A stretch of 64,000 nucleotides of DNA from contig NC_043003.1 in assembly GCF_006345805.1 (NCBI RefSeq), positions 64,542,001 through 64,606,000 on the forward strand, given 5' to 3'. This document shows positions 58,650 to 59,740 of this stretch, piece by piece. Origin of the DNA: Octopus sinensis. Lineage: Eukaryota. The notes under the pieces were generated by a model. That model made no database searches. It had not been told where the DNA came from and worked only from the letters and a program-made list of their open reading frames with translations. The position numbers and the translations under genes are program-made. Numbering within the stretch: the first letter of the stretch is position 1; each line of letters opens with the position of its first letter.

Positions 58650-58702
<53 letters not shown>

Positions 58703-58867
58703 AAAGATAAATGCGATACAATAAAATTAATTATAATCGCCGGTGTACCAGTACACGCCATATATTATACATATATCATTACATTCAAGGCGAAGAGTGC
58801 ACTAGATACACAATAGCTGGATAAATTTAGTGAGATGAAAATTAAAAACTTTTACAAACTTAACTTT

Positions 58868-58940
58868 TCTTATACTGCAGTTTCGCCAAATTCACTAATA
58901 AAAATAGTATTTATTTACTCAGGCTGGCTCTTCAGTAAGA
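58868..58940 (-). ncRNA. Type I hammerhead ribozyme, array unit 1
   Basis: TCTTA-CTGAAGA-GCCA...TGGC-GAA-AC(TGCA)GT-A-TAAGA. Confidence 0.88.
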
Positions 58941-59271
58941 TTCCTGTTAATGATGGGAAGACCATATCAATAGACCCATGTGCGTCTATCGAAATGCTCT
59001 TTCTAAACTATTCAAAACACTGCGCAGACTCAGAACAAACCCGACAAAATAGGGGATTGTGGCATATCGTCTAACGGTCAGAAATTTATCGAGAGAATGT
59101 GTAAACAAAGATAAATGCGATACAATAAAATTAATTATAATCGCCGGTGTACCAGTACACGCCATATATTATACATATATCATTACATTCAAGGCGAAGA
59201 GTGCACTAGATACACAATAGCTGGATAAATTTAGTGAGATGAAAATTAAAAACTTTTACAAACTTAACTTT

Positions 59272-59343
59272 TCTTATACTGCAGTTTCGCCAAATTCAGT
59301 AATAAAAATAGATTTATTTACTCAGGCTGGCTCTTCAGTAAGA
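59272..59343 (-). ncRNA. Type I hammerhead ribozyme, array unit 2
   Basis: Core and stems identical to unit 1; variation only in the stem II extension. Confidence 0.88.
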
Positions 59344-59672
59344 TTCCTGTTAATGATGGGAAGACCATATCAATAGACCATGTGCGTCTATCGAAATGCT
59401 CTTTCTAAACTATTCAAAACACTGCGCAGACTCAGAACAAACCCGACAAAATAGGGGATTGTGGTATATCGTCTAACAGTCAGAAATTTATCGAGAGATA
59501 TGTAAACAAAGATAAATGCGATACAATAAAATTAATTATAATCGCCGGTGTACCAGTACACGCCATATATATACATATATCATTACATTCAAGGCGAAGA
59601 GTTGCACTAGATACACAATAGCTGGATAAATTTAGTGAGATGAAAATTAAAAACTTTTACAAACTTAACTTT

Positions 59673-59740
59673 TCTTATACTGCAGTTTCGCCAAATTCAG
59701 TAATAAATAGTATTTATTTACTCAGGCTGGCTCTTCAGTA
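59673..59740 (-). ncRNA. Type I hammerhead, array unit 3 (5' arm of stem I truncated by TA tract)
   Basis: Core intact; TCTTA reduced to TA at the array edge. Confidence 0.7.

Follow-up and report, generated by a model that had tools for sequence, protein, structure and literature searches.

A 404-bp tandem repeat family of Octopus sinensis with type I hammerhead motifs and a Penelope-type insertion footprint in (TA)n tracts

The window that we analysed, a stretch of 64,000 nucleotides of the Octopus sinensis genome (contig NC_043003.1), contains a tandem array at positions 58693-59740 for which TRF reports a period of 404, 2.6 copies and 97% matches. Mapping of the individual units agrees with this description, and the 2.6 head-to-tail units with periods of 404 and 401 bp recorded in the initial annotation therefore stand. 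Unit 1 (58700..59103, minus strand; 404 bp) belongs to a subfamily that we term A and begins at the fixed end of the array, position 58700; unit 2 (59104..59504, minus strand) is reduced to 401 bp by three 1-bp deletions; unit 3 (59505..59739, minus strand; 235 bp) is 5'-truncated and ends in stem I of its own hammerhead motif. Relative to the consensus of the subfamily, each of the three has 3-4 changes, which are substitutions or small indels. As had also been stated, (TA)n borders the array on both sides, with tracts at 58638-58699 next to the fixed end and at 59739-59841 (59740..59841 in our TRF-based feature list) next to the truncated end, and the array holds no meaningful open reading frame, the longest ATG frame being 79 aa. 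The 404-bp unit has a GC content of 34%, and a search for a tRNA gene within it found none. Contigs of two public sequencing runs from two studies span the head-to-tail junction. In two runs that we guessed to be RNA, the unit appears as one contig of 434 nt (404 + 30); since a closed contig is equally expected from tandem DNA, we take it as evidence for the junction and for nothing else.

On the minus strand, a type I hammerhead descriptor matched units 1 and 2, in line with the hammerhead that had been assigned to each unit, and predicts cuts after 59277 and 58873; a single one of 20,000 dinucleotide-shuffled units passed the same descriptor. Hammerhead 1 (58868..58940, minus strand, predicted cut after 58873) is composed of stem I (58936-58940/58868-58872), the core CUGAAGA (58929-58935), stem II (58924-58928/58885-58889) plus an extension, the GAAA element (58881-58884) and the palindrome ACUGCAGU (58874-58881). 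Hammerhead 2 occupies 59272..59343 (minus strand), and hammerhead 3 (59673..59740, minus strand, H17 at 59678) has kept the core, whereas its stem I has lost the greater part of the 5' strand. Apart from this truncation, the differences among the three motifs (at 58895, ~59311 and ~59704) are confined to the extension of stem II, as the initial annotation had noted. Its 4-nt stem III palindrome (TGCA) needs correction, the actual length being 8 nt (ACUGCAGU), and the Rfam scan that it had proposed as a check gave zero hammerhead matches to the array at E values up to 10. Because stem II is long, we do not count this null result against the motif.

Two further motifs that the descriptor found in the window, with predicted cuts after 11440 and 48631, are unrelated to the 404-bp unit. 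The first lies in a TA-flanked fragment of ~240 bp (11310-11550, plus strand) and is a short type I motif with a palindromic GAUC loop and GUA; upstream of it stands the word CUUUGUUUACAU, which also occurs at the start site of the 404-bp family, and no copies of this fragment were present among the fetched loci. The second, a hammerhead-like motif with GUC, is part of a repeat (48560-48770, plus strand) that has 78-87% copies in L120, L220 and L053. A TA-bounded dispersed repeat at 58190-58640, with 70-84% copies in several loci and a degenerate CUGAGGA word, had no hit among proteins of the Hydra clade of Penelope-like elements (PLEs), and neither these proteins nor the fetched loci gave a hit to a broken ORF-like stretch on the minus strand at 60690-61290. 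Two-copy tandems at 5494-6049 (166/199 bp) and 39799-40080 (145 bp), whose repeats we presume to be SINE-like, are common in the fetched loci.

The hammerhead stems covary. Over 14 motif variants from four families, 94% of cells are paired, compared with 32-44% in slid controls, in a test whose structure was derived from the same sequences and which omits the remainder of stem II owing to MAFFT misalignment. Both partners have changed in five of the 17 pairs; two of these lie in stem I and two in the extension, and the fifth is the first pair of stem II. Stem II occurs as GCCA/UGGC, GUCU/AGAC or AUCU/AGAU. At N7 of the core, A, U and G are all found. Within the 404-bp family, the 12 core sites have accumulated 4 substitution events, against 0.48 per site overall, and among 27 array-fixed variants only one falls on any of the 32 sites of core and stems, namely the permitted change from GUA to GUU. 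Such low change is consistent with selection on the motif, although weakly so when taken alone. With the loop left free, 51 of the 62 motif variants from all fetched loci, which are not independent of each other, have a tetraloop that is exactly palindromic, with 9 distinct sequences represented. A palindromic helix III is described as a dimer-type hammerhead design in PMC4209133, and the dimer type that had been proposed for this helix is supported both by the 8-nt palindrome and by the folding energies. The single hammerhead fold is calculated at -9.9 kcal/mol versus -16.0 for an alternative fold that buries the CUG of the core, while the double-hammerhead fold reaches -33.0 kcal/mol compared to -34.4 for the free fold. 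These energies favour predicted cleavage as a dimer. The fold of the whole monomer is no more stable than that of shuffled sequences (z -0.96).

A DNA search of the genome gave 197 matches from the 40 candidates that were scored out of 788, and copies reside on many contigs at 95-99% identity. The unit-to-unit junction has 191 exact copies genome-wide. Insertion ends of the family number at least 173, of which 160 are exact and TA-flanked and 13 retain an internal GT; these exact-pattern counts are lower bounds and may include a few duplicated segments. The dispersed, non-integer tandem arrays in (TA)n for which a genome-wide search had been suggested are thus present in quantity, and the possibility raised there that the array merely reflects an assembly duplication can be set aside, given these insertions and the bridging of the junction in two independent runs. 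All of the 40 best arrays share one end (TA|AACAAAG), which lies within 5 nt of the 58700 register against (TA)n, in a test whose query was rotated relative to that register; their opposite ends vary. Forty further loci, chosen by going down the first 100 exact-end places in order and passing over those already in the set, measure between 19 and 3451 nt, and 30 of them are shorter than one unit. By a lenient test, 69 of 77 truncated ends are situated in microsatellite. The arrays end straight in TA, without LTR structure, and target-site duplications, which in metazoan non-LTR retrozymes exceed 4 bp when present, are unreadable because both ends lie in microsatellite. Polarity with one fixed and one variable end is established for target-primed reverse transcription of non-LTR elements and PLEs. 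From this polarity we infer that the ribozyme strand served as template for target-primed reverse transcription, in which 58700 would mark the start of reverse transcription and the RNA would correspond to the minus strand. On the strength of these sequence comparisons, the array represents a single insertion of a 404-bp family that is young, encodes no protein and bears hammerhead motifs. Among L101-L140, 17 of the 40 copies are no longer than 60 nt and end at or before a GC-rich palindromic stretch at unit positions 40-60, possibly a pause site of the reverse transcriptase.

The fixed end does not coincide with the predicted cut but lies 174 nt 3' of it, inside the RNA. The initial annotation had suggested copying by a Penelope-like reverse transcriptase; the PLE-type footprint agrees with the enzyme, and the ribozyme cut is not the place where copying begins. 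The internal copy of the start site, together with the adjoining 3' block (59083..59107, minus strand), is a candidate initiation signal that reads UUU|ACAUAU in the RNA of the family and carries one substitution, at 59099, in this array. Within the unit the RNA runs on past the start as UUU|ACAUAUU, and the block directly 3' of the start is almost invariant across related families. The 13 ends that retain GT are all located in TA tracts and come from both subfamilies, and TATGTA occurs at 3 of 32 junctions versus 0 of 269 other offsets (Fisher p 0.001). The start therefore wobbles on continuing RNA and does not reflect inherited read-through into TA. For a Poseidon PLE, in vitro work has shown that initiation takes place internally at two sites and that both strands are extended (PMC11167929). 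We rejected heterogeneity of the fixed-end junction as a sign of template jumps, with 115 of 127 junctions being identical, and discounted a consensus long-range helix around both start sites as proof, its pairs being mostly invariant. It is very probable, in our judgement, that the 404-bp family is a retrozyme-like element mobilised by PLE-type internal priming. The retrozyme reading of the initial annotation is supported by the low-GC tandem structure with a hammerhead per unit, the dimer-type helix III, the missing ORF and the dispersed arrays in (TA)n.

Three further families are related to the 404-bp unit at 73-79% identity, with units of 431 bp (L052:835-1590), ~398 bp (L229) and ~396 bp (L274:1500-2480), and a fourth, more distant one has units of ~390 bp (L256:180-920); these retrozyme-like families have the start site and conserved blocks in common. 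At L052, a copy of the 404-bp family sits inside the TA flank of the 431-bp family. The 431-bp sister family (73% identical) is two-armed in 16 of 28 distinct loci, and in 12 of these 16 the first start site defines one end and a second site the other, while no two-armed locus uses one site twice. In contrast, an inverted arm was found for the 404-bp family in only 1 of 78 loci (1 of the 40 best and 0 of the 38 further loci with hits), a difference with a Fisher p of 3e-7 when best loci are compared with best loci. The position homologous to the second start site (58775..58790, minus strand) is almost unused in the 404-bp family: TA-flanked second-site ends occur at 2 places for its pattern versus 18 for the exact pattern of the 431-bp family. 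The second-site sequence differs between the two families (UACUUAUAU in the 404-bp and UAAUGAUAU in the 431-bp family), and this difference might cause the one-armedness; since the ~396-bp family also differs at the site, we put this forward as a hypothesis only. In PLEs, an inverted, 5'-truncated second arm is described as optional (PMC8557442).

The initial annotation placed PLE fragments directly next to the array. This is true of the right flank, where an old, broken endonuclease fragment of a Hydra-clade PLE (about 59845..60550, plus strand; CxCX5C linker at ~60140) is the only flanking fragment with PLE protein similarity. We regard it as incidental and rejected it as a partner, since it is broken, has its best relatives at ~60% amino acid identity and is separated from the array by about 100 bp of TA, and a Hydra protein hit lies near only 4 of 80 loci; the neighbourhood thus does not serve as evidence for partnership. 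Nor is the unit merely the terminal repeat of an autonomous PLE, a possibility raised previously, for none of the 80 loci is contiguous with a Hydra ORF. The CxCX5C linker marks the (TA)n-targeting, hammerhead-bearing Hydra clade as characterised in PMC8557442, and searches that started from the right-flank fragment reached many young Hydra copies in the genome. Among these, candidate helper ORFs of 842-960 aa (L240-L248) contain RWx, DKT, YRDD, CxCX5C, CxxC and CxH, and show the motifs by which the Hydra clade is defined in PMC8557442 (RWK, a C-terminal EN, CxxC and CxH around E/N, a hammerhead and (TA)n). Pfam named neither of the two Hydra ORFs submitted to it. Long Asn-rich inserts and hammerheads with a long stem II occur in the young Hydra families L240-L242 and L244-L248.

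The Hydra hammerheads have the same design as that of the 404-bp unit: type I, with a long stem II and a palindromic helix III. Furthermore, Hydra insertions end against TA at two sites downstream of the cut in their own hammerhead (~+34 to +60 and +134 to +212), and in each of six loci with opposed arms, the two arms use different sites. Using blastn and nhmmer, we found no pLTR homologous to the 404-bp unit in 53 loci of the Hydra clade, with 150 of 8502 RT candidates scored; the matches in this partner search were inserted retrozyme fragments only. Ten comparisons yielded two leads that lack profile support, a 20-nt motif common to the unit and the L245 Hydra family (17/20 positions; 0/500 shuffles) and an AT-rich colinear match of the unit to the L248 family (1/500). 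A seeming retrozyme-Hydra chimera at L203 was rejected as a short insert of a related family that ends in TA beside a Hydra copy. Judged by footprint and not by homology, a Hydra-clade element is the likely helper of the 404-bp family.

The make-up of the arrays bears on the nature of the template. In 77 of the 80 loci (three were dropped as they offered no clean start), we counted 179 passes over the predicted cut, of which 177 ran through and 2 stopped within 6 nt of it, compared to 2.1 stops expected; a pile-up of truncations at the cut was thus not seen in these 77 loci. Since copying does not stall there, the template is continuous at this point. Subfamilies are mixed in 0 of 51 arrays (198 units; one locus dropped), among which we distinguish 23 haplotypes. 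Variants fixed within an array number 64, against a permutation mean of 5 and a maximum of 18 (0/500 reach 64), and divergence amounts to 0.43% within arrays versus 1.06% and 2.5% between them. Repeated reading of one monomer would explain this purity most simply, and together with the absence of a stall, it makes a circle the best fit. Many of the fixed variants are sub-subfamily markers common to several loci, so that purity alone does not prove a monomer template. Moreover, variants are shared block-wise in 4 of the 20 arrays with at least 3 full units, which indicates that local duplication or assembly effects also shape arrays; higher-order patterns were seen at L033 (period 4) and L043 (period 2). 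In L056, unit 5 has three variants from a different haplotype group, through either conversion or polishing.

From these data we propose, with moderate confidence in the scheme as a whole, that the 404-bp family is copied into (TA)n from circular monomer RNA by a Hydra-clade helper. Arrays with two or more units would be transcribed on the minus strand. Two neighbouring hammerheads, paired via the 8-nt palindrome, would form a double hammerhead whose cleavage would set free monomers of 404 nt (cut-to-cut, 58873..59276, minus strand, in this array), and these would be ligated into circles. A lone hammerhead is predicted to misfold, with CUG pairing to the CAG of helix III, so that a monomer or circle would be protected. 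The helper endonuclease would nick (TA)n and the reverse transcriptase would start inside the RNA at UUU|ACAUAU, perhaps aided by the likeness of this sequence to (UA)n, travel 0.05 to about 11 turns around the circle and fall off at random, whereupon the other end would be rejoined to the TA tract. In contrast to the 431-bp family and to the Hydra elements, the 404-bp family would almost never prime a second, inverted arm from the second site. Later local duplication would have lengthened some of the long arrays.

There is an appreciable, though small, chance that the template is instead a multimeric read-through transcript that stays uncut and derives from an array that was homogeneous beforehand, copied from the same PLE-type internal start, with unequal crossing-over lengthening and homogenising arrays later and the hammerhead being a passenger or acting elsewhere. 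Uncut RNA is indeed the dominant in vitro substrate of the anole PLE, for which the hammerhead is dispensable (PMC11167929), and an uncut multimer likewise predicts both the fixed end and the unhindered passage over the cut; the block duplications in long arrays also speak for it. However, it demands a longer homogeneous parent for each of the 23 haplotypes, and several long arrays (L057 with 11 units, L056, L065, L066 and L131) have haplotypes that are unique among the sampled loci. Of the non-fixed variants, 7 recur in two loci, but only 1 occupies the same unit rank in both. Multimers are predicted to be cut, because the dimer fold comes close to the energy minimum, and the covariation of the stems does not suit a passenger hammerhead.

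As to the helper, we consider it unlikely that the enzyme comes from a different PLE clade with TA targets (Naiad, Neptune or Nematis) and not from Hydra. The terminal repeats of the Hydra copies have no match to the unit, and Naiads, too, prefer (TA)n according to PMC8557442; however, the cephalopod Naiads described there are long-inactive remnants without canonical hammerheads, while the local Hydra elements are young and combine long open frames with the same hammerhead type and two ends past the cut. A cut linear monomer, from whose 5' end the reverse transcriptase would jump back to the 3' end of that molecule in every round of copying, would yield haplotype-pure arrays without ligation; we think this improbable, as truncations near the cut are not in excess and the subfamily switches expected from jumps between molecules are absent from all 51 arrays. 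That the array is no more than a minisatellite or an assembly duplication in which a hammerhead-like motif arose by chance, as the Rfam null result and the small inter-unit indels typical of long-read errors might suggest, is refuted by the dispersed, polarised insertions and has practically no probability left in view of the bridged junction, the low chance rate of the descriptor and the compensatory stem changes.

Within the proposed scheme of copying from circles, a bolder reading is that each array is a record of rolling-circle reverse transcription of a single 404-nt RNA circle by an enzyme of the Hydra clade, that the hammerhead is a dimer-only switch by which multimers would be cut and the circle spared, and that the family is a natural cis mutant without the second start site to which the 431-bp family and the Hydra elements would owe their two arms. 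We advance this reading tentatively, as a distinct possibility rather than an expectation. If it is true, a comparison of the 404-bp and 431-bp families would reveal where in the RNA the signal lies that directs second-strand priming during Penelope-type transposition. Cleavage and circularisation of retrozymes are established, and their return into DNA is only proposed in the literature that we covered. The 404-bp family supplies many young insertions with an exact predicted start, a defined target and open candidate helper ORFs, and its close sister differs sharply in one mechanistic trait, one arm versus two. Three questions thereby become testable with one small construct: whether a circle or a multimer is the template, what role a PLE-type hammerhead plays, and which signal directs the second priming.

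The class of the element, a non-LTR retrozyme, is already known, and the 404-bp family fits it, its unit length and its GC content of 34% lying within the bounds of about 150-450 bp and below 45-50% GC that apply to metazoan members. In the open literature, the scope of our survey (Repbase and Dfam lie outside it), we found no report on the family or on mapped insertion ends of a retrozyme, and the main text of PMC7229834 mentions neither octopus nor cephalopod. Like the coral, mussel and axolotl retrozymes presented there by Cervera and de la Pena (2020), the 404-bp family consists of short, low-GC tandem units (350-390 bp in mussel versus 404 bp here) with one type I hammerhead per unit, a weak palindromic helix III and no ORF, and coexists with hammerhead-bearing PLEs; copying from a circular template has been proposed for those elements as well. 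Unlike them, the 404-nt monomer is not unusually self-paired. Cleavage and circles are shown in PMC7229834 and insertion is only proposed, whereas here the insertion footprint is mapped, and cleavage and circles are predicted. By the definition in the preprint of Li, Clavereau and Pollet (bioRxiv 10.64898/2026.07.22.740005), which asks for two consecutive units with complete hammerheads and a motif energy < -5 kcal/mol, the 404-bp family counts as 'active'. The vertebrate retrozymes of that preprint, whose 35 genomes include no molluscs and which favours local amplification from a pLTR, are viewed as non-autonomous PLE derivatives and likewise co-occur with PLEs; pLTR homology is reported there for 24 of 57 Xenopus families, compared with none found for the 404-bp unit in the 53 Hydra loci. 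Of the Xenopus retrozyme dimers predicted in that work, 9 in number, just 1 underwent cleavage.

Among the PLEs, the Hydra clade (Craig et al., 2021; PMC8557442), of which Hydra-1_Obim is one octopus family in the supplement, is described as likewise targeting (TA)n, bearing canonical hammerheads and forming both partial tandems and inverted arms. The 404-bp unit differs from it in that it encodes nothing and has no detectable terminal repeat in common with the Hydra copies examined. The non-autonomous, MRC1-type Chlamys elements of the same study are alike in forming multicopy head-to-tail insertions, but most Chlamys elements are without hammerheads, unlike the 404-bp unit. The closest mechanistic counterpart of the start site is found in PAc of the green anole (Frangieh et al., 2024; PMC11167929), in which reverse transcription also begins inside the RNA downstream of the hammerhead cut, and fixed start sites define the ends of insertions into AT-rich targets. 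An autonomous element, PAc starts at two adjacent sites and needs no homology for priming, whereas the 404-bp family is non-coding and relies on essentially one site, which resembles its TA target.
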